From assembly GCA_017427315.1 (NCBI GenBank), contig JAFRTA010000267.1:1-53156 (forward strand): a stretch of 53,156 nucleotides of DNA, read 5' to 3'. The DNA comes from Clostridia bacterium (GTDB lineage: Bacteria; Bacillota; Clostridia; Oscillospirales; Acutalibacteraceae). A model generated the notes under the pieces. That model saw only the letters and a list, made by a program, of their open reading frames with translations. It searched no databases and had not been told where the DNA came from. Positions 14,515-53,156 of this stretch are shown piece by piece; positions within the stretch are counted from its first letter, which is position 1; the number at the start of each line of letters is the position of its first letter. The translations under genes and the position numbers were made by a program.

Positions 14515-14538
14515 CTGCCTGTTGTTGTGTTGCCGGAG

Positions 14539-21088: not shown

Positions 21089-21093
21089 CCATC

Positions 21094-21144: not shown

Positions 21145-21169
21145 TGACGATTACCCGTATTATGAAAGA

Positions 21170-21423: not shown

Positions 21424-21435
21424 CCTGATACTCCT

Positions 21436-23776: not shown

Positions 23777-24118
23777 CTATGGAGAAATTACACCGTCGGT
23801 AAGAATATCGCGTTCCGTCTTGAACAAGTCTTTCACATAGTACAGGTTGCTGGTTTGCGTTCCGTCTGTGCGGCGACGGGAAACAGTTTTTATCAGACCG
23901 CGGGAAGACAATGCTTTCAGGGCGGCGTCCACCGTTTTTCTGTCGATGCAGCATTCCGATGCGATCAACCGTCTGGACGGAAACGCGGAACGCTTCTCGT
24001 TGTCGCAATGCCGCAGCAGACAGCAGAGCACCGTAAATTCCCTCGGCTTCAGATGTAGGTCAAAAATTCGATTCGGCAGCATGAAAAAGTTTTTATGATG
24101 CGGTTTGTCGGGCTTCAT
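23777..24118 (-). CDS. Helix-turn-helix (HTH_36-like) protein common on small mobilizable elements
   Basis: Start MKPDKPHH after GGAGGTG. FFMLPNRIFDL...FPSRRLIASECCIDRKTVDAALKALSSRGLI. Confidence 0.75.
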   Translation of the reverse strand: MKPDKPHHKNFFMLPNRIFDLHLKPREFTVLCCLLRHCDNEKRSAFPSRRLIASECCIDRKTVDAALKALSSRGLIKTVSRRRTDGTQTSNLYYVKDLFKTERDILTDGVISP

Positions 24119-24475
24119 TTTTACACCTCCCTTCGGGTTTGATTGTTTGTGATTGTTCCCTCCCGTTCCTGATTTCATAATTTTCTTGATCCCGATAATC
24201 AGACACAAAAAAAGAGCGCAACAAAAACACACCGCAATGGACACGCCATTACGCTATGTGTTTTCGTTACGCTCTTAAGCTTCGATCAATCAAGCTCTGC
24301 GCCCGAAAAAAGAGAAAAAGAAAATATGTTAAATATGATCTGCCGGTTCAGCCGGAAGATATTTGTCAGGCACCAAACGTTTGTTTAGTATGGCTATAAT
24401 AACATAGTTCAGGGCATTTGTCAAGAGATAACAGAACAAATTTTCTAATGTTTGAAACGATGTTTGAAAATCTTG

Positions 24476-24672
24476 TCATATGATAAATATGATATCTCTG
24501 CCGTCGCAGAGCGTCTTGATCGATACGACGATAGGATTATGATTTTTTTCGTTCAGCATGTTATAAACCGTTGGCGGTGACACGCGTGCATATTAGCAAG
24601 GCTATTGATCTCCATTTTCCGTTGACTGCAGAGATTCAATATTCGAGCATCAACTGCCTTCTTTGTGTTCAT
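24476..24672 (-). pseudogene. Frameshifted small XRE-family HTH regulator, divergent from the cargo genes
   Basis: My translation gives MNTKKAVDARILNLCSQRKMEINSLANMHA, then the sense continues only after a frame shift near 24585 as VSPPTVYNMLNEKNHNPIVVSIKTLCDGRDIIFII*. The in-frame reading instead ends as CHRQRFITC*. Confidence 0.55.
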
Positions 24673-24903
24673 AACAATCTTCCTCGTCGATTTATCGTAA
24701 TAATAGCAAAAAATCCTGGGTATATTTGTAAACAATACAATATCGTAATATTTTTTTTAAAAATTATTGCAAATTTTTCTCAAATAAATATTATAGAGCA
24801 TTGCAAAAAAAATACTTCTATGATAACTTTAATATAGAATATTGACAAGCACTTCTAAATCATAAAACTATATCTAAGTAATTTTTTTTGAGGAGAATTT
24901 CTT

Positions 24904-27900
24904 ATGAACCGAATGAATAAAACACTTGCTATTATTCTTGCGATTATTTTGCTGGGATATTCAATGCATATGACATATACATTTGCCGGCTCAAATAATG
25001 TTGCTTGGAATAGTTCCTATGACCCAGTGACTGGAAACAGCGATACTGTTGATTTGCCTTCAGGTTGCACGAGCTATTACTATAATGAGAGTTTTTATTT
25101 AAACATTCAAGTTGGTGAAAATATTTTTATTCACGATGCTAATTTGTATGTTTATAAGGATGGTTCATTATATCATTCTGCAAATGCAAAAAAAGAGTTG
25201 GGCTTTTCAAATTATGTTCGATTTTGGGGACACCCATTAATGAATGCAGGTGTGGGCTCATATTATTTTTATTTTATATTAACTTATTCTACTGGATCGT
25301 TGTCAAATTCTACAAGTACTTATACCACAGGGAATTATTCTTTTGCCGTAGTCGATAGGACACCATCCATCAACGCTTCATCAACGAATGTATCGCTGAG
25401 TCTGGCTGGCACAAAAACAAAAACCGTTAGTTTTATTAAATCATGTGCTCTTAGTTATTCATACCATTATTCTTATAGCAAAAGCTCTTCCGCTTTTTCT
25501 TGTGAATGGATGGATTGGAATGGTGATTATGCGCCGCTCAAAATCACGGGAATAACAGCTTGCACAAATGAACCGATTACAATTTCTCTGAAAAGAGCTT
25601 CAGATAACGCCGTGATGGCAACAAAAACGATATATGTTACCGTCTCAACCGAGACATATAATATCAGGTATAATGCAAATGGCGGTACGGGAGCTCCATC
25701 TGATCAAACAAAAGTTTACAATGAGACACTGTCTCTATCTTCAGTCATTCCGGTTCGAACAGGGTACACTTTCCTTGGTTGGTCAACAAGCAGCGGTGCT
25801 TCTTCAGCAACGTATCTTCCTGGAGGATCATATACGAGCAACTACGGAACAACTTTGTATGCAGTATGGAAGCAAACAACGCTTTCATCTGGGGCTATTG
25901 TAACTACTCCAATTACATATAGCGGTCAACAGTATATCTATAAATTTACACCTTCAATCTCCGGATCATATGTTATTTATTCAACAGGAAATGCAGATAC
26001 AAAAGTATCTCTTTATAATTCAAGCGGTTCCGTGTTGTCAAATAACGATGATGGGGGCGAAAACAGAAACTTCAGACTGCAATATAACTTATCCTCAGGA
26101 TCAACTTACTATTATGGTGTTCAGTATTACAGTTCTTCTTCAACAGGTTCGATTTCGACGATTTTCGGACCTGTGTATGTAATACAATATAATGCTAATG
26201 GCGGAAGTGAAGCCCCGTCCCAACAGTCAAAAGATTATAATACAAGCCTTCTCCTGTCTTCTTTTTCTCCGGCTAAATTTTTTACAATTACATACAATGC
26301 CAACGGCGGCAATGTCAGTTCTGCAAGTAAGACCGTCAATTGCACGTTCAATAGCTGGAATACACAACAGAACGGCAGCGGAACAAGCTATAACGCTGGA
26401 GCAAACTATACCACCAACGCGAATGTGACACTTTACGCGCAGTGGATAAATCCGACGGCTGGTTCTCTTGCAACACCCACTCGTTCCGGTTATACTTTCG
26501 ACGGTTGGTATACATCGACAAGCGGCGGCAATCATGTGACAGATGCAGCCACTATTTCCGACAATACTACGCTTTACGCACACTGGACAAAAATTCCAGA
26601 AAAATACACTGTAACATATAACGCCAATGGCGGATCCGGTGCGCCTTCCCCGCAGACCAAGACCGAGGACGCTGCGCTGACACTGAGTAACACAAAACCG
26701 ACCAAGTCTTACACAATTACATACAATGCCAACGGCGGCAATGTCGGTTCTGCAAGTAAGACCGTCAATTGCACGTTCAATAGCTGGAATACACAACAGA
26801 ACGGCAGCGGAACCGCATATGATCCCGGTGACGAATGCACGGATGACGCGGATATCACGCTTTACGCACAATGGGAAAATCCGGTAGCCGGAGAACTGGA
26901 AGACCCTACTAAGGACGGGTATGTCTTTGACGGGTGGTATACTGCCGAAGACGGCGGAGAAGAGATAACTGAATCTTTTGAAGTAACAGAAGATATCACG
27001 GTTTATGCGCATTGGGCTAAAGAACTAAGTGAGTTTACTGTGAGCTATGACGCAAACGGAGGAGACGGAGCTCCCGAGGAACAGATTAAGACCGAAGGAA
27101 CGGATCTGACGCTCAGTGGGGACGTTCCCGTAAAGGAATATACGATTTCATATGATCTCACCGGCGGCAGCACGGAAAATGAAGAAAAAACCGTCGGCTG
27201 TACGTTCATCTGCTGGAACAGCGCATCGGACGGCAGTGGGACCGCATATGATCCCGGAGAAGAATATTCTGACGACGCGGAGGTCACGTTATACGCGCAG
27301 TGGAAAAATCCGGTAGCCGGGGTACTGGAAGACCCGATCAGGGATGGGTATGTATTTGATGGGTGGTATACTGCCGAGACCGGCGGAGAAGCTATAACGG
27401 AGGACTTTGAAGTATCCGGAGATATCACGGTATATGCGCACTGGATCGAAGAACCGGGTGAGTTTACCGTGAGCTTTGACGCCAACGGAGGAGACGAAGC
27501 TCCCGAGGATCAAATCAAGACCGAAGGAATGGATTTGACGCTCAGCGAAGATATTCCTGTGAAGGAGTATACTATTTTCTATGATCCCACCGGCGGCAGC
27601 ACGGAAAATGAAGAAAAAACCGTCGGATGCACGTTCCTCGATTGGAACTGTGAACCGGACGGCAGTGGGGCTGCATATGATCCTGGTGACGAATATACGG
27701 ATGACATGGATGTTACGCTTTACGCACAGTGGGGGAATCCGGTAGCCGGAGTATTGGAAGACCCGACCAGGGACGGGTATATTTTCGACGGGTGGTATAC
27801 TGCCGAAGACGGTGGAGAAGAGATAACGAAATCTTTTGAAGTAACAGAAAATATCACGGTTTATGCGAAGTGGGTCGCCGAAGAGGATCCGAGTTCCCTT

Positions 27901-28500
27901 GCCGGAGATATCAACGGCGACGGCGTTGTGAATAATAAAGACCTGACGAGGTTGATGAAGTATTTATCTGGTGAAGACGTATATGTCGTTAAGAAAACGT
28001 TGGATGTCAACGGCGACGGCATCTGCAATAATAAAGACCTGACAAGACTGATGAAGTATCTTGCCGGAGAAGACGTCAAGATCTATTACGACAAGAATGC
28101 CAGGGAATTCGAAAAAATATATTATGTTCCTGTCCGCGTCTCTACGCAGTCCGAAGCAGGAACAAATGAGCAAGCGCTATGGCAGTGGGAAGAATCCAAT
28201 GTCAGCATTTCCCTTAATGATGAAAAATCTCCGGAGAGAGTCCGTTCGATTCTGTTTGATGGCGACGGACGGCTGCTTTCCGCCTCGGGAACTGACACGG
28301 TTTTTGAGATCGAATGCGGCGTCCGATATGAATTTAATTATGACGACGCTGTGCTTAATTCTATCGTGCGCACAAAAGAGCCTTTGCAGCAGATGGATAA
28401 TGCCGCAGATTATATACTACGTCAACACTGCTGTTTAACGAAAACGGATTACTGTCAAAGTATACGACTGAAGAAGACACTTCATTTTCCGATTTTTTGA
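24904..28500 (+). CDS. Secreted 1198-aa protein with a PPC-like domain, multiple Listeria-Bacteroides (Flg_new/InlB-B type) repeats in four ~143-aa super-repeats, a type-I dockerin pair and the start of a YD-like region
   Basis: RBS GAGGAG. Signal peptide MNRMNKTLAIILAIILLGY. Repeats Y.V.YNANGG.GAPS.Q.K......L....P.R.GYTF.GW and TLYAQW. PPC-like SGSYVIYSTGNADTKVSLYNSSG...NDDGGE. GDINGDGVVNNKDLTRLMKYL / LDVNGDGICNNKDLTRLMKYL. Confidence 0.85.
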   Translation: MNRMNKTLAIILAIILLGYSMHMTYTFAGSNNVAWNSSYDPVTGNSDTVDLPSGCTSYYYNESFYLNIQVGENIFIHDANLYVYKDGSLYHSANAKKELGFSNYVRFWGHPLMNAGVGSYYFYFILTYSTGSLSNSTSTYTTGNYSFAVVDRTPSINASSTNVSLSLAGTKTKTVSFIKSCALSYSYHYSYSKSSSAFSCEWMDWNGDYAPLKITGITACTNEPITISLKRASDNAVMATKTIYVTVSTETYNIRYNANGGTGAPSDQTKVYNETLSLSSVIPVRTGYTFLGWSTSSGASSATYLPGGSYTSNYGTTLYAVWKQTTLSSGAIVTTPITYSGQQYIYKFTPSISGSYVIYSTGNADTKVSLYNSSGSVLSNNDDGGENRNFRLQYNLSSGSTYYYGVQYYSSSSTGSISTIFGPVYVIQYNANGGSEAPSQQSKDYNTSLLLSSFSPAKFFTITYNANGGNVSSASKTVNCTFNSWNTQQNGSGTSYNAGANYTTNANVTLYAQWINPTAGSLATPTRSGYTFDGWYTSTSGGNHVTDAATISDNTTLYAHWTKIPEKYTVTYNANGGSGAPSPQTKTEDAALTLSNTKPTKSYTITYNANGGNVGSASKTVNCTFNSWNTQQNGSGTAYDPGDECTDDADITLYAQWENPVAGELEDPTKDGYVFDGWYTAEDGGEEITESFEVTEDITVYAHWAKELSEFTVSYDANGGDGAPEEQIKTEGTDLTLSGDVPVKEYTISYDLTGGSTENEEKTVGCTFICWNSASDGSGTAYDPGEEYSDDAEVTLYAQWKNPVAGVLEDPIRDGYVFDGWYTAETGGEAITEDFEVSGDITVYAHWIEEPGEFTVSFDANGGDEAPEDQIKTEGMDLTLSEDIPVKEYTIFYDPTGGSTENEEKTVGCTFLDWNCEPDGSGAAYDPGDEYTDDMDVTLYAQWGNPVAGVLEDPTRDGYIFDGWYTAEDGGEEITKSFEVTENITVYAKWVAEEDPSSLAGDINGDGVVNNKDLTRLMKYLSGEDVYVVKKTLDVNGDGICNNKDLTRLMKYLAGEDVKIYYDKNAREFEKIYYVPVRVSTQSEAGTNEQALWQWEESNVSISLNDEKSPERVRSILFDGDGRLLSASGTDTVFEIECGVRYEFNYDDAVLNSIVRTKEPLQQMDNAADYILRQHCCLTKTDYCQSIRLKKTLHFPIF
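26284..26384 (+). repeat. Intragenic 101-nt direct repeat, copy 1
   Basis: 100 of 101 nt identical to 26713-26813 (offset 429 nt). Confidence 0.9.
26713..26813 (+). repeat. Intragenic 101-nt direct repeat, copy 2
   Basis: See 26284-26384; the single A/G difference is at GTCAGTT versus GTCGGTT. Confidence 0.9.
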
Positions 28501-28895
28501 TAGAATACGATGAAAGCGGGCGTGTTGTTTCTATTTCCGGCGAGGATTCGGGCGGATCGATTAATATTACGTACTCATACAACAACGACCGATATGACAG
28601 CGCTGAAACAGATTACTATGTTCAAACGGACGTCTCGGAATATCATTATAATGAAGAAGGTAAACTGATTCGAGTTGAACAGGAAGACGGAAATATCGAA
28701 TATGATTATGATGAACACGGAAATGTAACCGGGATCAAAAATGAGGTAATCGGTAATATGGAGCTCCAGATTGAGTACGAGCCTGCGACATATGCACAAT
28801 ATCAGGCGTTCCTTGCGATTATGAACTGCAATCTGGATTTTGTCACACCGAACGAAAAGATAACGTCTTTTTACCGGGGATTTCTGATGAATTAG
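28401..28895 (+). CDS. YD/RHS-like repeat tail displaced into another frame (probable frameshifted C-terminus of the 24904 gene)
   Basis: This frame is open from 28401 and reads ..LFNENGLLSKYTTEEDTSFSDFLIEYDESGRVVSISGED..YHYNEEGKLIRVEQEDGNIEYDYDEHGNVTGI. It has no RBS or ATG of its own, and the upstream frame already carries FDGDGRLLSASG / YEFNYDD. Confidence 0.55.
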   Translation, partial: CRRLYTTSTLLFNENGLLSKYTTEEDTSFSDFLIEYDESGRVVSISGEDSGGSINITYSYNNDRYDSAETDYYVQTDVSEYHYNEEGKLIRVEQEDGNIEYDYDEHGNVTGIKNEVIGNMELQIEYEPATYAQYQAFLAIMNCNLDFVTPNEKITSFYRGFLMN

Positions 28896-28962
28896 AGACG
28901 GCGTATCGTTAGTTTAATAGTACAAGAATAAACAAAGAATAATTAAATCGGAGGGTCAATTT

Positions 28963-31900
28963 ATGAATTTAAAAAGGATAACAGCAGTAATACTCACGTT
29001 TGTAATGATGTTTACTTGTATTCCTTTGACTGTCCATAATATGGATGCAAACGCGGCTGCAGTAAAACGATATACTGTTTTGGTGTTAGATACATCGAAT
29101 GAATCTAGCTTCAGCGATTCTGACGGGAATACGTTTTACACTGCACCGACTGCAATTGAATATGTAAAGCTATCTGCAACCAGATTCTTGTCAAATATTA
29201 GTAGGTCAACTGACGACAACTTTGTTGCAATTGTTTCGTTTAAGGATAACGCTCAAATTGTATCGGGTTTTTCGGATGACTATGAAGCATTAAAAGAAAA
29301 CATAGTAGATTTATATGCGTCAAGTGATGTGCGTGATATCTCTGCCGGTTTGGCAGAAGCACAATCGCTCATTAGTGAGATAAACGATGCCGATGCGGAC
29401 AAGAATGTTGTACTTTTTACAACAGGAATGACCAATAATGGCGAGTATAATTATGACGGAGTATTCAATGAGGATACGATCGGAAGTGATTGGTATAAAA
29501 TTAATACGGGTATATATCTATACGCATATGCAAATCACGCCTTTGAAGTTGCAGAAGAAATAAAAGAAGCGGGAACAACTCTGTATACTATCGGTTTATT
29601 TCAAACCATGGAGGATATTCCAGAACTTGGACAAAGTGTTGCAAAGCTCTTTCAATTAACTACTCGCCAATTGGCTTCTTCAGATGATTGTTACTTTCCT
29701 GTTGACGACCCGGACAAGCTTGAATTGACTTTTGGGGAAATTGCCGATGTGATTAATAAGATTTCTACTGTAACCGGAGAGCTTGGCGATTATGTAACAG
29801 TTGTAATCTTTAACTCTGATGAATATTATGATGCTGTGGAAATTAATAATAAAAAATATAAATTAGCTAAGGATTCATCTGTTACCGAGAAATGGGTTAA
29901 ATCAAACAAGGGAAGGTACGTAAAAGCGGTTTTAGCTAATGATGAAGTCTTAAGCATCGTAGCATATCTGACGACCAATATAGACAACAATGCTTTCAGT
30001 CATAATAAGAATAGTTTTTTTAGCAGGTTCTTTAGTGGGGAATTGCAATATGCTCTAACTCCAAACGGTGAAATTGTATTGCAAGAGAGACAATCTGACG
30101 GAACATATAAAACTTTAAGTATAAAAGAAAAAGAAAAACGAGAGAAAGAACTTAAGTATGAAATAAGCGATGATAAATTTAAAGAATTATTAGATTGGTG
30201 TTCCGAATTTTATAATGGAGTTAATAAAAACCAATTTAACCAAAAACTTCTGAAAAAAAAGCGAAATGAGTCTTGGGGCGGGAGTTGCTTTGGGGTAAGC
30301 ACGACCATGGCATTAAGCTTTAAAGGTGCTGTAAACCTTTCTGATATTTTTGGTGCTGGAGAAACATATTTTCAACTAGATACAGTGAATTGGCCTGTTA
30401 ATAACCAAGATTTTAGAGATTTAATTAATTATTATCAGTTGGCTCAATATGTAAATGCCTGGCAACATTACGATTTGACTGACAAAGGTGGTTTAATCCA
30501 ACAGAACCAAGAGACGAAAAACCGGGTTATTTCCGCAATGATAGACTACGCGCTGCAGTGTGATGCAACAGGTGAACCGTTTGTAATCTGTATGTCATAT
30601 TCGCATGATTCCGATCCCAATCAAAACGGAAATACCACAAGAGAGTCTGCAGGTCATGCTATAGTCGGTGTTGGGGTGGTATCTACTAATGAAAACGCGA
30701 CTGTTATCAGAATAGTTGACCCTAATTATAGACAGTATAATAATATGACATTGTCAAAGGATGATGCAACTGACAATTATTCAATTAGTTTTGAGCTCAA
30801 CTATACTGCTGATAGAAATTATGACTTCGATTCAATTAATTTTGTTTCTCTTGAGGAACTTCGTGTCGTTGATTATCACGGAGATTTATACTCTGAGAGA
30901 TATAATATTCCTACAAGCACTTTCATATTCGGTGTTAACGAGGAAATAACGATAATCGATAAAGATACCGGCCATAGATTTGTTTATCGGAAAGGTGAAA
31001 CCTCCGGTAATATGACCGTATATGATTTTTACAGATATTATTCTGATACAGAAGCGTCAGAAGGCGGCGAAATCGGATTTGAGCTTGAGCTCGGAGACAA
31101 TTACGAAATAATAACTGACGGCGAAATAGACCTGACAATAGGAAATGCGGAGGGCTTTGCCGGTATAGATGTGGTCAACGGGAATCATATTGATCTGGAT
31201 CTTGAAAAAGGTTTTGAAATTACCGGCGATAATATACAGTATGATATTTTTGTCGATCTTGATAATAGTGAAAATCTTATCAATGTGTCTGGCTGCGGTC
31301 GCGAAAAGATTTATGTTGAGGAAACGGATTCTTCTGTCGTTGTTACCGGTGATGATCTGTATATAGATTCTTGCGATTATTTATACAACGAAAAGATAAT
31401 TGAGAATGAGATCGATTCCGATGGACGGGAATTTGAATTTGGAATCGTTGAAGATCATGTAGGAGTGCTCAGAAAAATTGCGATTAATCCGGCTGTACTC
31501 ACCGTCTCTTCAACAGGGTCTGAGCCTGGTGAAGAAATTGTTTTGGCAGTTTCGATATCCGATAATCCCGGCATCAATACTTTTTCTTTGGGCTTCGACT
31601 ATGATGAATCTGTTCTTCAACTTACCAATGTTGAGTCGGTATCTGATTTGGGCGGACAATTCACCTATTCAAAAAAAGCCGTCTGGCTGAACAGTTCGGA
31701 CACGGATTATAACGGCGATATACTCAAATTATACTTTAAAGTGTTGCCTGAAGCCGTTTCGGGGGATGCAAAAGTAACGCTGACATATAACGCCGGCGAT
31801 ATTTCCAACTACAATGAGGATGATATCTTCTTTGAAGTTCAACCGGGCGTCGTTTCGATTCAGGAAAAGCAGACGATTCCCGTGACCACGGAAGCTCCCA

Positions 31901-34900
31901 CGACCGAAGCCCCGACTACAGAAGCCCCGACTACAGAAGCCCCGACGTCGGAGCCCGCGTGGACAGAGATCGGTCCTGTCGGTGATGTCAATCAGGACGG
32001 AAAAATCAATTCAATGGATGCGAGACTGACCTTGCGTTTCGCCGCAAAACAGCAGACCGCTTCCGGGATGGAAAAACTCCTCGCAGACGCGAACGGCGAT
32101 AAGCTGGTACAGGCAAAGGATGCTCGTCTGATTCTGAGATACGCCGCCAAACTTGATAAAGCAGGTGAGAACGGTAATATTATTTTGTCCACGATCAGAA
32201 AGGCAGATAACGGTGAAACCGATCCGTCAGCGGGCAGCGAACCGGAAACGACTTCGACTGAGCCGTCACAGGCTCCGACAACAGCGCCTGCAACACAGAT
32301 GACGACAGAACCTGTCCCGGAGAAGCCTGCCGTTTATTCCGAGATAACCCCGGAAGATAAAGCAAGTATTAAAGAACTCGCGTTTGATATGTGGCTCTTT
32401 AATCCCTATTTGACAGAAGAATACGTGAATGATGAATCGGATGCATTTTCGTTTGATAGTACCGCCGATAACGCAATGTCGCAGGCAATGATATTACTGA
32501 ATCCCAATACTTACGCGTTATTTAATCGTTATTATTCTGATTCAGCGGATGAGCTATACGATTTTGCCGATCCTTCTGAACGATTTGATATGTGTGTGAG
32601 AATGTCAGGAGAGAACGTGGATAATCTCTTGCGTGATTTATTCGGAATAGAGCCTGATCATGATATCGATAATGAGATTTGTTATTATAAAGACGGTAAT
32701 TATTATATGTCTGTTTCACTTGAAGGCACAGACAGCTTTGACTTTTTTGAGATAGACGATATTTCAAAAAATCAAGACAATTCTTTTGACATTACATTGC
32801 ATCTCTATTCGGTAGATCCGGGTGCCGGGAATGTTCGAGACGAGCACGTAGAGTTTAATATCCGTGCCGGAATGATAGAATCCTCAGGTCAAAGGAATTT
32901 GCGTATAGAAAAACTGCAGTTCTATAAAACAAAGGAAGAGAAAAGCACTCCCGATGTTTCCGATAATTACCACACAAGATATAAGGGCCGTGAATACCAC
33001 ATTCCCCAAATCGCTCGGCAGGGATCGAATTTTGAACGCATTAACCGCGAAATCTACGAAAAGTATTATACGAACGGCGCAGAATCTGCTCTGAGCAATC
33101 TTGAAATAGGAATTGATCCTTCCGTGGTGTATATCAATTATGAATGGACCGTGTTTGACAGTATTCTGTCTCTTTGTGTCTACAGCCAAACGGATGCGGC
33201 GAGCGCGCGGTTTTATGATGTATACAATGTCGGAGAGATGAGAGGAGACGCCTGCGCGGACTCTTATGTCATGAGCCTGTTCGATTTGTCGGAAGATGAA
33301 TTTTACAAAGCAACAAAGTCTGCAATGGAAAAAAAGTTTTATGATGAGTATGGAGAAAAACCTTTCAGTGACGACTTTGCGGATATCTGGAACGGCGCAT
33401 TAAAAGATACGCTTGCGGATGAAAATGTACAAAAAGTTGTTCCGCATATCAACAGCGATAATGAATTGTGTGCGATTGCATATATTTATTCTATCGGCGG
33501 CGCAGAAGGGTATTATTACGATATCAATATTTCCGAGATTATTTCATCCGATTTGCACGATGATGTGCAGGAAGCTGAAACGCACAAAAAACCGGGCTTC
33601 AATCTGATACGATATGAGGATGCACTGTTGGGTAATCGCGAGTACAAACTTAATGAAATCGGTCTTTTACAAGAAATAGATTTTTACGCAAACGAGGATA
33701 TTGGTTCATATACCATTACCTTTGTATATGACAGTGAAGGACGTTTGCTGGAGGCGAAGAATTCAAAAGACGACTTTCATGAAGGCGTTGTGCATACATG
33801 TAAATACGATATAACAGGTCGGTTGATCCAAGAAGGCATTCCCGGACCGAGCGAATCATGGATTGTCAAATCATACACTTATAATGCAGAAGGACAAAGG
33901 GATAGAGAAATGTGGGAATATTCTTTTGGAGAAATGACAGAGTATAACTTCACAAAGAATTATTACCATATTTATTCCGAAGGCGAGGAAGAAAATATTA
34001 CGGATACGCTTGTCTTAGAAGATGGAGAACAGTCAACAGAGGCGCTTAACGAAACCTTCGACGCCAAAGGGCGCATGTTGCGAGGGTATTATTATGATGG
34101 TATCTTCTGTAGTTTCAATTATCACGAAACGGAACCTCTTTCATTGCGAGATGTCATTGTTGCAGAAGACGGGGTGGAAATACCCCCAGATTCCGAGGTT
34201 TTGTTTTATGATAATGCTGGATTGCTGGTTGCCACACTGCCTGTGGGACAAATTGACCCGCCTATTCAGAAGGATGTTGACGGGACCATTCTCGGTATTG
34301 GAGACAATATCACGATGTACAATATACTTCCATCGATTTCCACAGAAAACTTTATTGAGCCGACAAATAAAGATTTTGAGGAATTGGGTACAGAGTTTTC
34401 TTATGAATCGCTTCTTGCAGATTTAAACCTGACATGGACTGGTTATGCATATTCGCCGTACAGTTATATTATCAATTATGACCATGCTGAAACAACCTCT
34501 GCAACGGTAAGAGAAAGACTGTTCTTCATTACTTACTCTATGCCTTATATTCGATATTTCGGAGAGCCGGAACGTGTGACATATCCAGAAAATGACGATC
34601 CTTTTGATTATTTGCCGGGATCATTTCATGTATATCTGAAGTATTCCGAAGAAAAGATCAGCTGGCTTGCAAAGAATTTTTTGAACACAGAAAGTTTTTC
34701 TCCGAATGACTTTATTGGTGATATTTCATATTGCGCCTATAAAGACGGTTATTTCTATTTTATTGATGAAGGCTATGACATGGAATGTGACTTGATGTCA
34801 AAAATATCAAGTATAGAGAAATTAGACGACGGACGATATTCCATGCAAATCGAATATATGATTAACGATTCTGGTAATCAATCTCCGGCATCAGGAAACG

Positions 34901-34986
34901 GAACTTTGGTTGCCGCCTTGAAACTGATTGACGGGAAAAGGGTGTGGTCTATCTACAGCTATAAAGCTGAGATTATCCCCCTGTAA
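28963..34986 (+). CDS. Giant (2007 aa) secreted multidomain protein with a vWA-like domain, a papain-like Cys/His domain, a cohesin-like module, a TTEAP linker, a dockerin, and a long C-terminal region with YD-like repeats
   Basis: RBS GGAGGG. Signal peptide ending NMDANA. VLVLDTSNES.. vWA-like. WGGSCFGVS (Cys442) and SAGHAIVGVG (His565). Cohesin-like aa ~840-968 (GEEIVLAVSISDNPGINTFSLGFDYDESVLQL...GDILKLYFKV...AKVTLTY). GDVNQDGKINSMDARLTLRFAA / DANGDKLVQAKDARLILRYAA. FVYDSEGRLLEA, YDITGRLIQE, YTYNAEGQRD. Confidence 0.85.
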   Translation: MNLKRITAVILTFVMMFTCIPLTVHNMDANAAAVKRYTVLVLDTSNESSFSDSDGNTFYTAPTAIEYVKLSATRFLSNISRSTDDNFVAIVSFKDNAQIVSGFSDDYEALKENIVDLYASSDVRDISAGLAEAQSLISEINDADADKNVVLFTTGMTNNGEYNYDGVFNEDTIGSDWYKINTGIYLYAYANHAFEVAEEIKEAGTTLYTIGLFQTMEDIPELGQSVAKLFQLTTRQLASSDDCYFPVDDPDKLELTFGEIADVINKISTVTGELGDYVTVVIFNSDEYYDAVEINNKKYKLAKDSSVTEKWVKSNKGRYVKAVLANDEVLSIVAYLTTNIDNNAFSHNKNSFFSRFFSGELQYALTPNGEIVLQERQSDGTYKTLSIKEKEKREKELKYEISDDKFKELLDWCSEFYNGVNKNQFNQKLLKKKRNESWGGSCFGVSTTMALSFKGAVNLSDIFGAGETYFQLDTVNWPVNNQDFRDLINYYQLAQYVNAWQHYDLTDKGGLIQQNQETKNRVISAMIDYALQCDATGEPFVICMSYSHDSDPNQNGNTTRESAGHAIVGVGVVSTNENATVIRIVDPNYRQYNNMTLSKDDATDNYSISFELNYTADRNYDFDSINFVSLEELRVVDYHGDLYSERYNIPTSTFIFGVNEEITIIDKDTGHRFVYRKGETSGNMTVYDFYRYYSDTEASEGGEIGFELELGDNYEIITDGEIDLTIGNAEGFAGIDVVNGNHIDLDLEKGFEITGDNIQYDIFVDLDNSENLINVSGCGREKIYVEETDSSVVVTGDDLYIDSCDYLYNEKIIENEIDSDGREFEFGIVEDHVGVLRKIAINPAVLTVSSTGSEPGEEIVLAVSISDNPGINTFSLGFDYDESVLQLTNVESVSDLGGQFTYSKKAVWLNSSDTDYNGDILKLYFKVLPEAVSGDAKVTLTYNAGDISNYNEDDIFFEVQPGVVSIQEKQTIPVTTEAPTTEAPTTEAPTTEAPTSEPAWTEIGPVGDVNQDGKINSMDARLTLRFAAKQQTASGMEKLLADANGDKLVQAKDARLILRYAAKLDKAGENGNIILSTIRKADNGETDPSAGSEPETTSTEPSQAPTTAPATQMTTEPVPEKPAVYSEITPEDKASIKELAFDMWLFNPYLTEEYVNDESDAFSFDSTADNAMSQAMILLNPNTYALFNRYYSDSADELYDFADPSERFDMCVRMSGENVDNLLRDLFGIEPDHDIDNEICYYKDGNYYMSVSLEGTDSFDFFEIDDISKNQDNSFDITLHLYSVDPGAGNVRDEHVEFNIRAGMIESSGQRNLRIEKLQFYKTKEEKSTPDVSDNYHTRYKGREYHIPQIARQGSNFERINREIYEKYYTNGAESALSNLEIGIDPSVVYINYEWTVFDSILSLCVYSQTDAASARFYDVYNVGEMRGDACADSYVMSLFDLSEDEFYKATKSAMEKKFYDEYGEKPFSDDFADIWNGALKDTLADENVQKVVPHINSDNELCAIAYIYSIGGAEGYYYDINISEIISSDLHDDVQEAETHKKPGFNLIRYEDALLGNREYKLNEIGLLQEIDFYANEDIGSYTITFVYDSEGRLLEAKNSKDDFHEGVVHTCKYDITGRLIQEGIPGPSESWIVKSYTYNAEGQRDREMWEYSFGEMTEYNFTKNYYHIYSEGEEENITDTLVLEDGEQSTEALNETFDAKGRMLRGYYYDGIFCSFNYHETEPLSLRDVIVAEDGVEIPPDSEVLFYDNAGLLVATLPVGQIDPPIQKDVDGTILGIGDNITMYNILPSISTENFIEPTNKDFEELGTEFSYESLLADLNLTWTGYAYSPYSYIINYDHAETTSATVRERLFFITYSMPYIRYFGEPERVTYPENDDPFDYLPGSFHVYLKYSEEKISWLAKNFLNTESFSPNDFIGDISYCAYKDGYFYFIDEGYDMECDLMSKISSIEKLDDGRYSMQIEYMINDSGNQSPASGNGTLVAALKLIDGKRVWSIYSYKAEIIPL
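31885..31959 (+). repeat. 15-nt tandem repeat encoding (TTEAP)n linker
   Basis: ACCACGGAAGCTCCC ACGACCGAAGCCCCG ACTACAGAAGCCCCG ACTACAGAAGCCCCG ACGTCGGAGCCCGCG. Confidence 0.9.
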
Positions 34987-35067
34987 TGCAACTCGGTCTG
35001 AAACAAGGCTCCAATATATCCAAAAGATTATCTCTTTATGGGGTATAATTTATGACAGCTTTTTCTG

Positions 35068-35096
35068 TTGACATTTTTGTGAAAGTATTTTATACT
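35068..35096 (+). promoter_or_regulatory. Near-consensus promoter of the recombinase gene
   Basis: TTGACA, 17 nt, TATACT. RBS GAGGTG before the ATG at 35133. Confidence 0.65.
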
Positions 35097-35132
35097 TACA
35101 TCCAGAAAATTTGTTCTGCTTGAGGTGCAAAA

Positions 35133-36983
35133 ATGAATGCAGTAATCTATGCGCGCTATTCTTCCGACAATCAGCGGGAAGAATCCATCGAAGGGCAGAT
35201 TCGGGAAAACACGGCGTTTGCCGAAAAGAACGGGATGACAATCGTCGGTCACTATATAGACCGCGCGTATTCGGCGAGAACGGACAAACGACCCGAATTC
35301 CAGCGGATGATCCGTGACAGCGCGAAGAAAAATTTTGACGTGGTTATCGTCTGGAAATTAGACCGTTTCGCCCGTAACCGTTATGATTCCGCAAAATACA
35401 AAGCCGCGCTGAAAAAGAACGATGTAAAGGTCGTTTCCGCGACGGAGGCGATCTCCGAAGGCGCCGAAGGAATCATTCTCGAAGCGGTTTTGGAGGGATA
35501 TGCGGAGTATTATTCTGTTGATCTGTCGGAAAAAATATTGCGCGGTATGACGGAAAACGCTCTGAAATGTAAATACAACGGCAGTCACGTCCCGTTGGGC
35601 TTTCGCATAGACGAGGATCGGTTTTATCAGATTGACGAATCGAAAGCGCCTATCGTCAGAGAGATTTATGAGCGTTACGCAAGCGGAGAGACGGGAAAAT
35701 CCATCATTACGGATCTGAACGACCGCGGTCTGAAAACGACGACAGGCAAACCTTTTGTCGCCAACAGTCTGCACAGCATTCTGACAAACCGGATGTATAT
35801 CGGCGAATATCATCACGGCGCTGTAGTTAAGCCGGGCGGGATACCCGCCATTGTGTCCCGGGAGCTGTTTGACCGGGTCGCCGCACGAATGGAAAAGAAC
35901 AAGCGCGGTTCGGGCCATAATAAGGGCTATGAGCGGTATATCCTTTCCACAAAACTGTTTTGCGGAAAGTGCAGGTCCATGATGGTCGGTGAAAGCGCGC
36001 AAAAGAAAAACGGCATGATTTACCGCTATTATAAATGCGCTTCTGCGAAACGTAAAAAAGGCTGCGACATGAGAGCCGTTCGCAAGGACTGGATCGAGGC
36101 TCTGGTGATAAATAAACTGGTTTCAATATTGAACGATCGCGACACGCTGAATAAAATGGCGGACGCAGTATTGGCGCTTTTCGACGAAGAAAACGCCGCT
36201 GTCCCCGCATTGGAAGCGCAGCTGAAAGAAACGCATAAGGCAATCGACAATCTGATGAAAGCCATTGAGTCGGGAATCATTACACGGACGACGAAATCCC
36301 GGTTGGAAGAACTGGAAAAAGAAGAAGAACGGATTCTGCAATGTATAGAAACGGAGAAAGCAAAGCAGCCGATGCTTTCAAAAGAAATGATCCTGTTTAC
36401 GTTGGAAAAATTTCGAAATCTTGACCTGTCTGTCGGAAAAAACCGGGAACGGCTGGTTGACGGTTTTGTCAAATGCATCATACTTGAAGATGACAGAATC
36501 ATCATAACGACAACTTTCCGGGACGAACCTGTCACAATAATAACGAAAGAAGAAATTGAAACGATTGCTGATCACGGTTCGGATGTCAGCGGTTCGTCTC
36601 CACCACAAAAATCGGCATCCTTTCGGATGCCGATTTTTGTATGGTGGAGCAAGAGGATCGAACCGTCGAGCGAAACGCTCCGGTGGAGCGTTTCGGGAGC
36701 GGCCCGGCAGAAGAGGACAGGAAGGGGCATCCTATCGGATGTCGATTTTTGTATGGTGGAGCAAGAGGATCGAACCGTCGAGCGAAACGCTCCGGTGGAG
36801 CGTTTTGGGAGCGGCCCGGCAGAAGAGGTCATACGCCCTCATGCTGCTTGCGGGCGTCCTGTTCTCAACGGACCTGCCGAAGCGTATTTTCAAAAAAAGA
36901 TTCGATTGCTTTGCGTCAAGGCTTGCCGCTGCCGCCGTGCTGATCCTGCTTTCGGTCCTGATGCTCATCGGCGACAGCTATAA
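35133..36983 (+). CDS. Large serine recombinase; the conserved part ends near nt 36590, and the ORF then reads through attR into flanking DNA
   Basis: N-terminal resolvase domain AVIYARYSSDNQ...VIVWKLDRFARN. Recombinase domain and zinc-ribbon (CGKCRSMM...YYKCASAKRKKGC). Coiled coil. No stop codon before the junction. Confidence 0.9.
   Translation: MNAVIYARYSSDNQREESIEGQIRENTAFAEKNGMTIVGHYIDRAYSARTDKRPEFQRMIRDSAKKNFDVVIVWKLDRFARNRYDSAKYKAALKKNDVKVVSATEAISEGAEGIILEAVLEGYAEYYSVDLSEKILRGMTENALKCKYNGSHVPLGFRIDEDRFYQIDESKAPIVREIYERYASGETGKSIITDLNDRGLKTTTGKPFVANSLHSILTNRMYIGEYHHGAVVKPGGIPAIVSRELFDRVAARMEKNKRGSGHNKGYERYILSTKLFCGKCRSMMVGESAQKKNGMIYRYYKCASAKRKKGCDMRAVRKDWIEALVINKLVSILNDRDTLNKMADAVLALFDEENAAVPALEAQLKETHKAIDNLMKAIESGIITRTTKSRLEELEKEEERILQCIETEKAKQPMLSKEMILFTLEKFRNLDLSVGKNRERLVDGFVKCIILEDDRIIITTTFRDEPVTIITKEEIETIADHGSDVSGSSPPQKSASFRMPIFVWWSKRIEPSSETLRWSVSGAARQKRTGRGILSDVDFCMVEQEDRTVERNAPVERFGSGPAEEVIRPHAACGRPVLNGPAEAYFQKKIRLLCVKACRCRRADPAFGPDAHRRQL
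36575..36584. repeat. Element-end inverted repeat CGGTTCGGAT (partner of 21096-21105)
   Basis: Lies 8 nt from the attR core, inside the recombinase ORF. Confidence 0.6.
36593..36608 (+). repeat. attR core (direct repeat TTCGTCTCCACCACAA), the displaced tRNA 3' tail
   Basis: Identical to 21073-21088. Confidence 0.9.
36611..36638. terminator. Probable original tRNA-Ala terminator (bidirectional form)
   Basis: Perfect 10-bp stem ATCGGCATCC-TTTC-GGATGCCGAT, flanked by AAAAA and TTTTT. Confidence 0.75.
36614..36828. repeat. Tandem duplication, 2 x 112 bp, each unit carrying an inverted tRNA-3'-end-like segment and an 11-bp-stem hairpin
   Basis: TGGTGGAGCAAGAGGATCGAACCG occurs at 36642 and 36754. 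Hairpin CGAAACGCTCC-GGT-GGAGCGTTTCG. The second unit is slightly degenerate. Confidence 0.85.
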
Positions 36984-49544: not shown

Positions 49545-50234
49545 ATGTACAACGTTCTGGTCTGCGACGACGATATCGCCATTCTCGATTCCCTGCAGAT
49601 CTACCTTGAGCTGGAGCATTACAACGTCTTTCGCGCCGTCAACGGCAGAGAGGCGCTGAAAATCGCGGAGGGAAACGAGCTGCACTGCATCATCCTTGAC
49701 ATCATGATGCCGGAGCTGGACGGCCTGCAGGCGACACTGGCGCTGCGGAAAGATAAGAACATTCCCATCATCATGCTGTCTGCAAAGAGCGAGGACATGG
49801 ATAAAATACAGGGCCTGAGCTTCGGCGCGGACGACTACGTCACGAAGCCGTTCAATCCGCTGGAGCTGATGGCGCGGGTCAAATCCCAGATCCGCCGTTA
49901 TACGGCGCTGGGCAGCCTTGAAAACAAGGAGGGCGTGATCGAAAACGGCGGTCTCGTGCTTGACCTGCAGGCGCGCAGCCTCACCGTGGACGGCGAGCCC
50001 GTCCGCCTGACCGCGACGGAATACGGCATCGTGGAATTCCTGATGAAGAACCGCGGCAGGATCCTGACCACCTCTCAAATCTATGAGGCGGTGTGGAACG
50101 AGCCGTCCTTCTCCGTGGAAAAAACCGTGACCGTACACATCCGGCGGATCCGTGAAAAGATCGAGATCGAACCGAAAGAGCCCAAATATTTAAAGGTGGT
50201 GTGGGGCCTTGGCTACAAAATGGAAAAACTATAA
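49545..50234 (+). CDS. OmpR/PhoB-family response regulator
   Basis: Start MYNVLVCDDD after GGAGAGGAGG. Receiver domain D..D..K. C-terminal winged helix LTATEYGIVEFLM...VWGLGYK. Confidence 0.92.
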   Translation: MYNVLVCDDDIAILDSLQIYLELEHYNVFRAVNGREALKIAEGNELHCIILDIMMPELDGLQATLALRKDKNIPIIMLSAKSEDMDKIQGLSFGADDYVTKPFNPLELMARVKSQIRRYTALGSLENKEGVIENGGLVLDLQARSLTVDGEPVRLTATEYGIVEFLMKNRGRILTTSQIYEAVWNEPSFSVEKTVTVHIRRIREKIEIEPKEPKYLKVVWGLGYKMEKL

Positions 50235-53043
50235 GGGAATCGCGCGGGCGCTGGCGATCCTGATGGCGATCCTGTCGGCGTTTTCCGCCATGTACTGCGG
50301 ATTTTTCGCCTGCCGCGACGAGCTGCTGTACGATTTTGACAAGTCGCAAAACTACTATAACACCATGTTTTTCGAGAGCGCCGTGCAGAAGCGCATGGCG
50401 GAGATCCGCACCTACGCGCAGCAAAGCAACAAAAACGCCCTGACGATGACCGAAGAAGAGAAGGATGCCGTCTGCGCCGAGCTTCGCGACGCGCTGCTGG
50501 GGGTGAGCAGGGATCTCTATGCCCGTTATGCCGTCTACGGCTTCACGGAGGATATCTTTGAAGGCTGTACGGACGCGGACGACTATTTCCGGGCGTTCCA
50601 CGAGCGCAGACCCGAACTGCGGGATAAGCCGGATGAGGGTCTGTTTTATGAATTTGCGTATAACGCGGCGGACGAGATCTCGACGGAATCGCAGCGGCGG
50701 GCTTATGAGCTGATCGATTCGGGAGCGTACGAGTTCACGGCGGAGATCGGAGGCGACCGGTTCGCGCTTCCGGCGGTGCATATGCGGCATTACTACTCGA
50801 CGCGGGGCGGTGAAGACGTTGTGTCGACGTCCGTTCCGGTCACGGAGCCTGCCGACGGCGCGGAAGAGCCGACCGCGGCGGAAACGACGGCCGTCGCTCT
50901 TTCCGACGTTACGCAGCCGGAGGCCGTGCCGTCGACGCGTCCTCCCGCGGAAACAACCGCGGCTTATACGACGCCGACCTATGATTTCTATAAAGAATAC
51001 GATGAATATACCGGGCAGAACCAGTGGGATCCCGCCGAGGTTTATTCCGGGAGCCGTGAGATCGCCCGCTGGCTTGCGGACTGCTACGCGCTTCGCACGT
51101 TCCTGATCGGCGCGGTAAAGACCGTCGACCCGGAGAAGCTGGCGGCCGCGCAATTTACCGCGGAGCCGGGACCGTTCACATATCAGCCGTACAGAACGGA
51201 GGATCTCTTTGACGATTCCTTTGCCCAGTATCTTTATTACTATCCCGAGACCGGGGAATATATCACCAATATCGCCGAATATAAACAGAAAGGCGAAACG
51301 CCGATGTTTTCCTCCGCCGACGCGGAGAAAATAAGCGCGGCGGTCGCCGGACCGGCGGAAAAAGCCGAATGGCGGGTGATCGTGACGCCGGATCGGGCGG
51401 AGCATAACATCGGCAACGGCGCCGACGCGGATGATACCCTGCGGAAGGAAGCGCTGGGATATACGCGCATGAGCTACTGTCTTGAAGAAATGCAGGCTTC
51501 CGGCGGGGAGTTTTATATGTTTGCGTCCGACAAAGCGCGCGAGAGCGACGTCTTCTCCTATATCGAACGGGACTTCGAAAAGGCGAAGCTCAGACAGCCG
51601 TTTTTGATCGGCGGAGCCGCGATCGGCGCTTTCGTATTTTTGATATCGGCAGTATATATCCTGACGTTTGGAACAAAAGTTCCTGTCGGAATTGACAAGC
51701 TGTATAACGACTGGCATTTTCTGCTCAGCGGTGGGCTTGCAGCAGCCGCGTTTTACTGCGGCGCAGGGCTCCTGGTGCAGGTGATCGAGGCGTACGGCTT
51801 GTTGGGGAGCCGGTACCATACAGGCTTTATGCGTGAGCATACGTGGGATCTGACGGCGATGGAGCTGCTTACTCCCCCGCTGTTCGCCGTCGGCGCGCTG
51901 ATTCTGCTGGAATATCTCGCCTCTGTGATCCGCAGCGGCAGAAACGGGCGGCTGATCCGGCACTCTTTCTGGTTCGCTCTGCCCTGCTGGGCGATTGGAA
52001 AGGCGAGAACGCGCAGCAGAAGGATCCCTAAGTATTACAAAAAACAGTTCTTTGCCGTGCTGATCGTCGGCGTCGTGCTGATCTTCTCGCTGTGCATCGT
52101 TGAGATCGCTCTCAGCGACCGGTTTGAAAGCGGACCTTACGCGTTCGGCTGCCTGCTGGCTCTCGGGATCGCGATCGCCGTACTTGTGATCGTTCTGCGG
52201 CATATCCGCGGCATCGATGAAATCGCAGTAGCCGCCGAGCGGATCCGCAACGGCGACCTGACCGCGGAGATCGATCTTGCGAAGCTGCCGAAGCATCTGC
52301 GCTCGATGGCGGATTCCGTGCTGCGGAACCGGGACGGCATCAAGGCGGCGGTGGAAAAGAGCGTCAGAGACGAGCGCATGAAGACCGCGCTGATCACCAA
52401 CGTGTCGCACGATTTGAAAACGCCGCTGACTTCGATCATCACATATTCGGACCTGTTGTCAAAAAGAGAACTGTCCGATGAAGAGGCGGAGAAATACGTC
52501 GGCGTTATCAATGAAAAGGCGATCACGCTGAAACGGCTGATCGAGGACCTTGTGGAAGCGTCGAAAGCGTCCACCGGCAATATAAAGATCGAAAAAGTCA
52601 ATCTGAATATGTATGAGATCGCGCTGCAAACGGTGGGCGAATACGCGGACGAGCTGGAAAAGCGAGGCCTGGAGGTGGTGGTGAACGAGCCGCCGCAGGC
52701 GGTGATCGTTTCCGCCGACAGCCGGCAGACCTGGCGGATCATCGAAAACCTGCTGTCCAACGTGAAAAAATACGCGATGAAGGGGACAAGAGTCTATATC
52801 GACCTTCGGCGGCAGGGCGCGTTCGGTGTGTTCGAGATCAAGAACGTGTCGGAAACGCCGCTGAATATCCCGCCGGAGGAGCTGACCCAGCGGTTTGTGC
52901 GGGGCGACGCGTCGAGGACCACCGAGGGAAGCGGTCTGGGGCTTTCCATCGCGCGCAGCCTCTGCGAGCTGCAGGGCGGACGGTTTGAGATCGCCATCGA
53001 CGGAGATCTGTTTAAGGTCGACGTGGCACTGCCGGTAGTGTAA
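50209..53043 (+). CDS. Sensor histidine kinase with a very large N-terminal extracytoplasmic region and multiple TM helices
   Basis: H-box VSHDLKTPLTSI; N and G boxes (NLLSNVKKYA, GSGLGLSIARSL); 944 aa. Confidence 0.9.
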   Translation: MATKWKNYKGIARALAILMAILSAFSAMYCGFFACRDELLYDFDKSQNYYNTMFFESAVQKRMAEIRTYAQQSNKNALTMTEEEKDAVCAELRDALLGVSRDLYARYAVYGFTEDIFEGCTDADDYFRAFHERRPELRDKPDEGLFYEFAYNAADEISTESQRRAYELIDSGAYEFTAEIGGDRFALPAVHMRHYYSTRGGEDVVSTSVPVTEPADGAEEPTAAETTAVALSDVTQPEAVPSTRPPAETTAAYTTPTYDFYKEYDEYTGQNQWDPAEVYSGSREIARWLADCYALRTFLIGAVKTVDPEKLAAAQFTAEPGPFTYQPYRTEDLFDDSFAQYLYYYPETGEYITNIAEYKQKGETPMFSSADAEKISAAVAGPAEKAEWRVIVTPDRAEHNIGNGADADDTLRKEALGYTRMSYCLEEMQASGGEFYMFASDKARESDVFSYIERDFEKAKLRQPFLIGGAAIGAFVFLISAVYILTFGTKVPVGIDKLYNDWHFLLSGGLAAAAFYCGAGLLVQVIEAYGLLGSRYHTGFMREHTWDLTAMELLTPPLFAVGALILLEYLASVIRSGRNGRLIRHSFWFALPCWAIGKARTRSRRIPKYYKKQFFAVLIVGVVLIFSLCIVEIALSDRFESGPYAFGCLLALGIAIAVLVIVLRHIRGIDEIAVAAERIRNGDLTAEIDLAKLPKHLRSMADSVLRNRDGIKAAVEKSVRDERMKTALITNVSHDLKTPLTSIITYSDLLSKRELSDEEAEKYVGVINEKAITLKRLIEDLVEASKASTGNIKIEKVNLNMYEIALQTVGEYADELEKRGLEVVVNEPPQAVIVSADSRQTWRIIENLLSNVKKYAMKGTRVYIDLRRQGAFGVFEIKNVSETPLNIPPEELTQRFVRGDASRTTEGSGLGLSIARSLCELQGGRFEIAIDGDLFKVDVALPVV

Positions 53044-53156
53044 ATTCTGGTTTAACGGCGAAGCCGTTAAACCAGAATTTACAGACTCGAGACTCAAGAC
53101 CCGAGACCCAAGATACAGACTTAAAGTCTGTGCGACTTGGTAAAAACTGAGATAAC
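53038..53156 (+). repeat. Dispersed ~115-nt 3'-end element, copy B (starts at the kinase stop codon; runs to the window edge)
   Basis: 21-bp stem TGTAAATTCTGGTTTAACGGC-GAA-GCCGTTAAACCAGAATTTACA, with the stop codon TAA inside the stem. Then heptamers CGAGACT CAAGACC CGAGACC CAAGATA CAGACTT. Homologous to 14636-14755 (inverted). Confidence 0.85.

Follow-up and report, generated by a model that had tools for sequence, protein, structure and literature searches.

The window analysed here is the whole of contig JAFRTA010000267.1 (53,156 nucleotides, nt) from a Clostridia bacterium of the Acutalibacteraceae (assembly GCA_017427315.1), and our subject is a pair of similar sequence tails within it, one following secA and the other following a histidine-kinase gene at the contig end. 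[quoted passage not shown] The family multiplies within genomes and settles in short spacers, flush with the neighbouring genes. An earlier note on this DNA had described the tails as a structured element whose stem contains the stop codon of the gene, and had offered a REP/MITE-like element that creates stop codons as one of its readings. That reading is backed by copies in other genomes, by near-identity of copies within a genome, by orthologous sites that are empty or differently filled, and by contig breaks at the element.

Two copies of one element in the window

The base-for-base match claimed for the two tails was reproduced, with 53037-53156 on the forward strand aligning to 14755-14562 on the reverse strand at about 80% identity, from A-GTG-TAA-ATTC onwards. 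An nhmmer profile built from the pair and run on the window returned the truncated kinase copy at E = 1e-37 and the secA copy at E = 8e-65. In both genes GTG-TAA is indeed the last sense codon plus the stop, with the TAA inside a hairpin, and the two hairpins have the same stem base, as had been described (coordinates in Table 1). The kinase hairpin folds at -31.7 kcal/mol as RNA (z -11.3) and at -22.9 kcal/mol as DNA, and the secA hairpin at -22.3 kcal/mol (z -6.9). The statement that the upper stems differ and yet are each perfectly paired holds for the 21 bp of the kinase stem and for the 9-bp apex of the secA stem, but not for the stretch between base and apex in the latter, where there is one C/A mismatch and one bulged G. 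The heptamer tract that follows was confirmed to have a 7-nt period with Tandem Repeats Finder (TRF), and a terminator scan agreed that neither hairpin is followed by a T-run or terminator consensus.

The proposed length of about 115 nt proved to be an artefact of the contig end. In an independent assembly with an identical kinase (locus L001), the likeness to the secA copy runs on for about 65 nt, to L001:13021, for a total of about 193 nt. The secA copy is complete in the window (14753-14538), measures about 216 nt with a second, inverted hairpin, and takes up the entire spacer. From the end of its right palindrome it is 23 nt to the start codon (14514) of the downstream gene, which is Rce1/CPBP-like; the identification of this gene as prfB with a frameshift site was rejected. 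The kinase copy in L001 has the core and the inverted 7-nt array and lacks the right palindrome. Its array on the right runs up against a convergent GH39 gene with a called stop within the element; the last ~18 codons of this gene (...RSRVPRPESRGAEICAR*) and its stop lie in the right half of the element, at L001 12966-13060. Downstream of the kinase, the window and L001 have this convergent GH39 gene, whereas two relatives (L129, L131) have a co-directional membrane-protein gene. Because the downstream synteny differs in this way, the truncated kinase copy marks a rearrangement junction.

Anatomy and covariation of the unit

A full type-A unit spans about 190-257 nt and is made up of a terminal palindrome, a 7-nt array, an asymmetric core, an inverted 7-nt array and a second terminal palindrome. 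The terminal palindromes are 33-46 nt long and almost perfect; their outer 10-12 bp, (G)TAAATTCTGAtt / aaTCAGAATTTA(C), are conserved, and the apex varies freely. The left palindrome reads (G)TAAATTCTGAtt-apex-loop-apex'-aaTCAGAATTTAC, and the right one is its inverted copy down to the 3-nt loop, which reads GGA or GAA on left-hand ends and TCC on right-hand ones. There are about four CGAGnnn units in the left array and 4-11 CTCGnnn units, the inverted complement of the left, in the right array; across loci, TRF reported period-7 arrays of 3 to 10.3 units. The core of about 75 nt combines a small stem-loop, CCAAG..ACAGACT-TAA-AGTCTGT..CTTGG, with an AT-rich stretch. The conserved block AAAGTCTGTGCG is the 3' arm of this internal stem-loop. 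With such terminal inverted repeats, the profile also matches the reverse strand of each copy, and the consensus fold is rod-like, with the left and right arrays paired to each other. Taken as a whole, the unit is a foldback whose core is asymmetric. It has no coding content, as the only open reading frames (ORFs) within it are chance ones of at most 40 amino acids, and the hairpin stems run into ACAG and the heptamers without a U-tract. Mismatches of both the G-U and the A-C kind occur in the array stem, so that neither strand is singled out. Half-palindromes are also present in related loci and are consistent with the decay of unstable palindromes.

The covariation noticed between the stems of the two copies is real and significant, and what covaries is the terminal palindrome of a symmetric DNA element with two ends. 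It was counted over 13 distinct gap-free palindromes and 17 stem pairs, in which 94.6% of the cells were paired and the unpaired ones lay almost entirely in the two outermost pairs. Eight of the 17 pairs were changed on both sides (in 17 cells). None of 500 shuffles reached any of the observed covariation measures, and pairing fell to 19-48% when the partner was slid by 1-3 columns. Compensated changes are found even within the conserved foot, as in AAATACTGC/GCAGTATTT, AAAATCTGA/TCAGATTTT and AAATTCTGG/CCAGAATTT. Palindromy is maintained. Template switching within quasi-palindromes during replication can maintain palindromy, and the perfect palindromy here could come from such palindrome-templated correction or from selection that acts on the hairpin as DNA or RNA.

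Position relative to genes

Neighbouring genes were judged from gene calls and Pfam. Wherever a palindrome faces the 3' end of a gene (11 of 11 ends, nine different genes), it supplies the stop codon as the TAA (six) or TGA (five) of TAAATTCTGA. TAA is the stop of secA (window, RUG11941, L121), of the kinase (window, L127) and of an ASCH gene. The TGA cases are genes for NAGPA, AP_endonuc_2, EEP phosphatase, adh_short and GH43, and proteins stopped in this frame end in ...(V/D)KF. SecA and the kinase have the same lengths as their orthologues without the element (...GRNE*, ...ALPLV*). One further palindrome (L102, ~4500) lies just past an intrinsic terminator, about 55 nt after the stop. The other ends of the units face start codons or the stops of other genes. 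Palindromes that point at a gene's 5' end lie 15-28 nt away from the start codon, with nothing but the ribosome-binding site in between (window secA copy, L039, L012, L016, L121); the exception is a composite element in L124, in which the palindrome ends about 90 nt upstream of secA.

Copies in other genomes and sister families

The species representatives of GTDB were scanned with the conserved 17-mer AAAGTCTGTGCGNCTTG. The matches listed were mostly chance ones, and true copies were confirmed with the nhmmer profile. Among the matches listed, at least six further full or partial copies were found in two other metagenome-assembled genomes (MAGs), both from the rumen, which agrees with the view of the element as dispersed. 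Ruminococcaceae bacterium RUG11941 (CACYHJ01) has at least five copies on four contigs (L039, L083, two in L102, L016), Clostridia bacterium RGIG3748 (JAFTEP01) has one (L012), and the 53-kb window has two. Compared over the core, four RUG11941 copies are 94-100% identical to one another, the kinase copy is 96% identical to L012, and the window secA copy reaches 73-84% against all others. These identities set young, near-identical copies inside single genomes apart from at least one old copy, that of secA, in which the internal stem-loops have decayed without compensation. Four assemblies break in or beside the element (window end, L127/L128, L016, L012), as would be expected because multi-copy repeats break short-read assemblies.

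Sister elements keep the palindrome (G)TAAATTCTGA...TCAGAATTTA(C) and carry different heptamers and cores (Table 1). An unbiased scan of the related loci for perfect hairpins of at least 14 bp returned almost only members of this family. Two of the sister elements deserve description. The L124 composite (GCA_017480115.1), which is non-coding and lies upstream of secA, has its AGGTAGG/CCTACCT arrays outermost and contains nested palindromic repeats, including three CGGGTAGCACGGC hairpins, together with TTCCGCA-type heptamers; several repeat families appear to be inserted into one another. The L016 element consists of a half-site AAATTCTAA, 3.5 heptamers and a full palindrome (GTAAAATCTGATTTAACGGC-TCC-...), with no core and no inverted array, and arrays may arise in this way between a duplicated hairpin arm and the hairpin.

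The distribution appears to be narrow, namely a clade of uncultured rumen and gut Clostridia of the Oscillospirales type. Relatives with 73-74% SecA identity had no such hairpin in 22 kb each. Scans of metagenomes and viruses with a 21-base gapped pattern gave chance matches only, none confirmed by the profile, and the hairpin pattern had no matches in viral contigs. BLAST against plasmids and phages found no match to the element. In Rfam, no family matched the element at gathering or permissive thresholds; the only hit at gathering thresholds was tRNA-Ala, and the permissive ones were meaningless matches to microRNA hairpins.

Occupancy of orthologous spacers

The same spacers are filled differently in relatives. 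Between secA and the Rce1-like gene, the window has a type-A unit. RUG11941, with secA about 88% identical at the nucleotide level, also has type A there, in the opposite orientation and in a copy that groups with those of its own genome, and a relative with 96% SecA identity has type B in three assemblies (L121/L122/L123). The comparison of orthologous secA 3' ends proposed in the earlier note found the element missing from two more distant relatives: one with 86% SecA identity has a terminator and perhaps a hairpin that has decayed in a spacer of 84 nt, and one with 82% has the TAA and a plain terminator in 73 nt. At the kinase 3' end, the type-A unit of the window corresponds to a hairpin followed by the contig end in L127/L128 (83%), to the half-site GTG-TAA-ATTCTGATC alone in L131 (64%), where the next gene is 20 nt on, and to a GAGGGAT element without hairpin in L129 (65%), where the kinase tail is altered to ...ALPLEALSDKG*.

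Both filled and empty orthologous sites were therefore found for the secA and the kinase 3' spacers; the empty ones are in genomes about 10% or more diverged, with approximate boundaries. Such patterns mean that units were gained, replaced or flipped at these spacers repeatedly and independently. They fit a mobile or recombining repeat that prefers sites with a resident family hairpin or gene ends, and a regulatory signal passed on by vertical inheritance does not fit them.

Table 1. Features of the two type-A copies in the window, and sister elements in related loci
Locus	Feature	Position	Strand	Remarks
Window	secA	14749-17481	-	Gene upstream of the secA copy
Window	GTG + TAA	14749-14754	-	Last sense codon and stop of secA
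Window	secA copy, left terminal palindrome	14708-14753	-	Base as in the kinase copy, other apex, one mismatch and one bulge
Window	secA copy, left 7-nt array	14672-14707	-	TRF
Window	secA copy, asymmetric core	14595-14671	-	Internal stem-loop and AT-rich stretch
Window	secA copy, right 7-nt array	14571-14594	-	CTCGnnn units, inverted complement of the left array
Window	secA copy, right terminal palindrome	14538-14570	-	AAATTCTGATTCAGC-TCC-GCTGAATCAGAATT
Window	Histidine-kinase ORF (944 aa)	50209-53043	+	Gene upstream of the kinase copy
Window	GTG + TAA	53038-53043	+	Last sense codon and stop of the kinase gene; TAA is the first triplet of the terminal TAAATTCTG of the element
Window	Kinase copy, left terminal palindrome	53039-53083	+	Perfect 21-bp stem, 3-nt loop GAA
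Window	Kinase copy, left 7-nt array	53083-53113	+	CGAGACC-like, about 4 units; TRF on L001 12875-12905 (offset 40208)
Window	Kinase copy, internal stem-loop	53108-53140	+	Holds the conserved AAAGTCTGTGCG block
Window	Kinase copy, start of core	53141-53156	+	Cut off by the window end
L121	Sister element			Heptamers TGCGGAA / TTCCGAA; different core
L124	Sister element	~5718		Heptamer GAATGAT; short element
L124	Sister element	9297-9910		Heptamers AGGTAGG / CCTACCT; 600-nt composite, nested repeats
L001	Sister element	14908-15155		Heptamers AGGAAAA / CTTTTTC; left half-site, right full hairpin
L016	Sister element	92-170		Heptamers TGCCTAn; half-site, array, full hairpin
L129	Hairpin-less element			Heptamers GAGGGAT / ATCCCTC; no hairpin

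Mobilisation and points against it

A repeat of this kind would be mobilised in trans, and the likeliest agent would be an enzyme that reads the conserved foot of the DNA hairpin, as HUH/Y1 transposases do at the ends of IS200/IS605 insertion sequences and at REPs. Such an enzyme is suggested because ends that are recognised by structure, including those of IS200/IS605, REPs with their REP-associated tyrosine transposases (RAYTs) and attC sites, characteristically combine strict pairing with a stem base that stays constant and an apex that is free to change, as these do. The position of the stop codon within the stem may have a simple origin. With stop codons in two of the three frames of TAAATTCTGA, a unit that inserts at the native stop or immediately ahead of it would close the reading frame at once and hence be tolerated. 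When the repeat is co-transcribed, the terminating ribosome would have to open a stem of 15-21 bp at the stop codon. A side effect on the mRNA is probable: the stem could hinder the terminating ribosome, block 3' exonucleases or serve as a substrate for RNase III. Side effects of this kind on RNA are known for REPs and Correia elements (PMC2229807).

Several points weigh against a mobile repeat. The window and about 250 kb of related loci were found to contain no transposase and no RAYT, with no PF01797-type gene among the neighbours, and an autonomous partner with the same ends was not seen in the window or the related loci examined. There is no unambiguous target-site duplication; TA flanks both ends in L039 and L083 and not in three other copies, and this TA belongs to the palindrome. 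Nor is there a truly recent empty site, as the closest genomes compared are about 10% diverged in DNA, so the boundaries and the mechanism of insertion given here are provisional. The copy numbers are lower bounds among the matches listed, with only chance matches in the metagenome and viral scans. The mobile-repeat reading does not account for the heptamer array specific to each sister family. Finally, recombination among hairpins already in place, and not transposition, could be the reason why the same spacers are used again and again.

A bolder version of the mobile-repeat interpretation, which we would call speculative and unlikely, holds that the conserved palindrome and family-specific heptamers define an unrecognised class of bacterial foldback element. 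Such an element would be recognised by shape and not by sequence, moved by a hairpin-binding enzyme and directed to spacers that already bear hairpins of the family, where it would be replaced or flipped like a cassette and would systematically tune the termination or decay of host mRNAs through the stop codons in its stem.

Alternative explanations

We considered whether the tails are instead a cis-acting RNA element of gene 3' ends, in line with the mRNA-stabilising 3' structure of the earlier note, in which the stop-codon hairpin is selected in the RNA for mRNA stability, for stopping transcription or for tuning translation termination. The hairpins are strong (-31.7 and -22.3 kcal/mol, z -11 and -7) and their stems change in a compensatory manner, the stop codon is in the stem at all 11 ends that face a gene 3' end, and with no terminator separating secA from the following gene, co-transcription of the element is probable. 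However, a strand-specific signal does not fit the inverted occurrence of the same palindrome at the far end of the unit, where it faces other stops or start codons at 15-28 nt, or the flipping of the whole element at the secA locus of RUG11941. Copies that are 94-100% identical stand beside unrelated genes of one genome, and orthologous genes in relatives do without the element. The U-tract is missing, and the inner stem-loops of the old secA copy decayed without compensation. Taken together, we judge a dedicated RNA element to be improbable, although an RNA effect may exist as a by-product, by analogy with REPs. The evidence weighs neither way on the mRNA-stabilising or the protein-binding role that the earlier note also offered.

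In the window and in RUG11941, the units that separate secA from the Rce1-like gene have opposite orientations, which could also recall an invertible DNA switch (inverton), in which a recombinase acting at the terminal inverted repeats flips a promoter- or terminator-bearing core and so phase-varies the downstream gene. The long terminal inverted repeats and the occupation of the whole spacer upstream of that gene would fit. Against this, the RUG11941 copy at the secA locus groups with the copies of its own genome and not with the window copy, and the independent assemblies of a locus agree on one orientation (L121/L122/L123; window and L001); the difference was seen between species only. The window copies contain no sigma-70-like promoter, with a single weak 9/12 match in L039 only, no copy has a recombinase beside it, and many copies lie between convergent genes. 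We therefore think an inverton very improbable.

We attach the least credence to a small RNA gene that stands alone, or to an RNA that acts as a protein sponge with the heptamers as repeated binding sites. A rod-like consensus fold with repeated short motifs and a type-A core that is 85-100% conserved between genomes speak for it, but there is no match in Rfam even at permissive thresholds, the promoter and terminator consensus is missing, heptamers and cores are unrelated between sister families, the orientation to neighbouring genes varies, and the asymmetry of G-U versus A-C picks no strand.

Two further candidates were rejected. An intrinsic (Rho-independent) terminator is incompatible with the scan, which found no terminator-like site at the hairpins in any copy. 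An integron attC site was raised by GTTTAAC/GTTAAAC in one apex; the motif does not occur in the other copies, and there is neither an integrase nor a cassette array.

Relation to known repeats

Eukaryotic foldback transposons flank an unrelated centre with long inverted arms that consist of short tandem repeats. They measure kilobases and belong to eukaryotes, and the likeness is one of architecture only. Cyanobacterial short tandemly repeated repetitive (STRR) heptamer arrays are intergenic tandem 7-nt repeats associated with very small palindromic mobile repeats, the small dispersed repeats (SDRs). To our knowledge, inverted heptamer arrays bracketed by a conserved palindrome have not been described for the cyanobacterial repeats. 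The phylum is unrelated and the sequences differ, and here too we draw an architectural analogy only. SDRs are mentioned in PMC3116915.

Closer parallels are found among REPs, bacterial interspersed mosaic elements (BIMEs) and the inverted REP doublets called REPINs (PMC2817692, PMC3116915). Like these, the type-A repeat involves short extragenic palindromes that can form hairpins in single-stranded DNA or RNA and that occur as inverted pairs, in many near-identical dispersed copies located after genes. New elements go into or next to existing ones in both, and a trans-acting HUH/Y1 enzyme is thought to recognise the hairpins. The definition of a REP asks for GT(A/G)G at the head and for an imperfect, GC-rich palindrome 20-35 nt long (PMC2817692), whereas the palindrome here has the head (G)TAAATTCTGA, an AT-rich foot and an essentially perfect stem of 15-21 bp. 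The inverted doublet of a REPIN is present, but the two palindromes are about 150 nt apart, which is much further, with heptamer arrays and a core in between. No RAYT was seen among the neighbours, and the hosts are Clostridia and not proteobacteria.

Bacterial MITEs such as Correia/NEMIS, RUP, the Coxiella QMITE1/2 and YPAL/RU-2 (PMC2229807, PMC5896051) share further features. They are non-coding and smaller than 300 bp, with terminal inverted repeats, TA at their tips, a higher A+T content than the host, and both filled and empty sites. The ends of QMITEs likewise overlap the last bases of genes, by 1-50 bp in Coxiella (PMC5896051), and provide stop codons; YPAL inserts beside dyad symmetries; and Correia elements have long stems that are possible substrates for RNase III. 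As expected of a MITE, the family described here is small, has inverted ends, is dispersed in multiple copies and occupies some orthologous sites that are empty in other genomes. It differs in that each terminal repeat is itself a perfect palindrome, in the subterminal 7-nt arrays that vary between sister families, and in having no clear target-site duplication and no cognate insertion sequence seen. We know of no described counterpart in the Firmicutes to the combination of a perfect terminal palindrome, family-specific 7-nt arrays and recurrent occupancy of the same spacer. What we describe is probably a new family of a known type of small mobile DNA and not a dedicated RNA signal of gene 3' ends.

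Other features of the window

The window also contains a 15.5-kb integrated island (21073-36608) with a GC content of 43%, compared with 56% in the rest. Its borders are marked by a 16-bp direct repeat, TTCGTCTCCACCACAA, which occurs at 21073-21088, in the 3' end of a tRNA-Ala gene (21010-21085), and again at 36593-36608, and the island is missing from the syntenic contig L121. Its genes encode a MobA/VirD2 relaxase (21436-22983), two giant surface proteins that bear dockerins (24904-28500 and 28963-34986) and, at 35133-36983, a large serine recombinase. The recombinase was considered as a partner of the type-A repeat and set aside, as it belongs to this unrelated island.

A second variable segment lies at 4884-12986, where about 8 kb with a 1924-amino-acid ORF (5060-10834) and a Schlafen-like gene stand in place of 1.2 kb with an HTH_3 gene in L121 (14639-15838). 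Within 12810-12925 there is a perfect 24-bp palindrome, TTCTGATTATTATAATAATCAGAA (12891-12914), with a near-copy about 80 nt away that overlaps a TTGACT-16-TATAAT promoter upstream of a Schlafen/AlbA_2 and HATPase_c_4 gene (11463-12764). The two look like a repressor operator pair. The half-site TTCTGATT of TTCTGATTATTATAATAATCAGAA matches the foot of the palindrome of the type-A repeat, which may be a coincidence.

Significance

Small mobile repeats in uncultured rumen and gut Clostridia have hardly been catalogued. The family described here breaks assemblies and marks at least one synteny breakpoint, and it rewrites the last codons and the 3' or 5' untranslated ends of housekeeping genes, including those for SecA, a two-component kinase and glycosidases. 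Knowing the family is of practical use for better annotation of gene ends and better assembly of MAGs. Its unusual grammar of a constant palindrome with variable 7-nt arrays may, along with the equally unusual way in which spacers are occupied repeatedly, hint at a mobilisation mechanism that is specific to hairpins and undescribed in Firmicutes.

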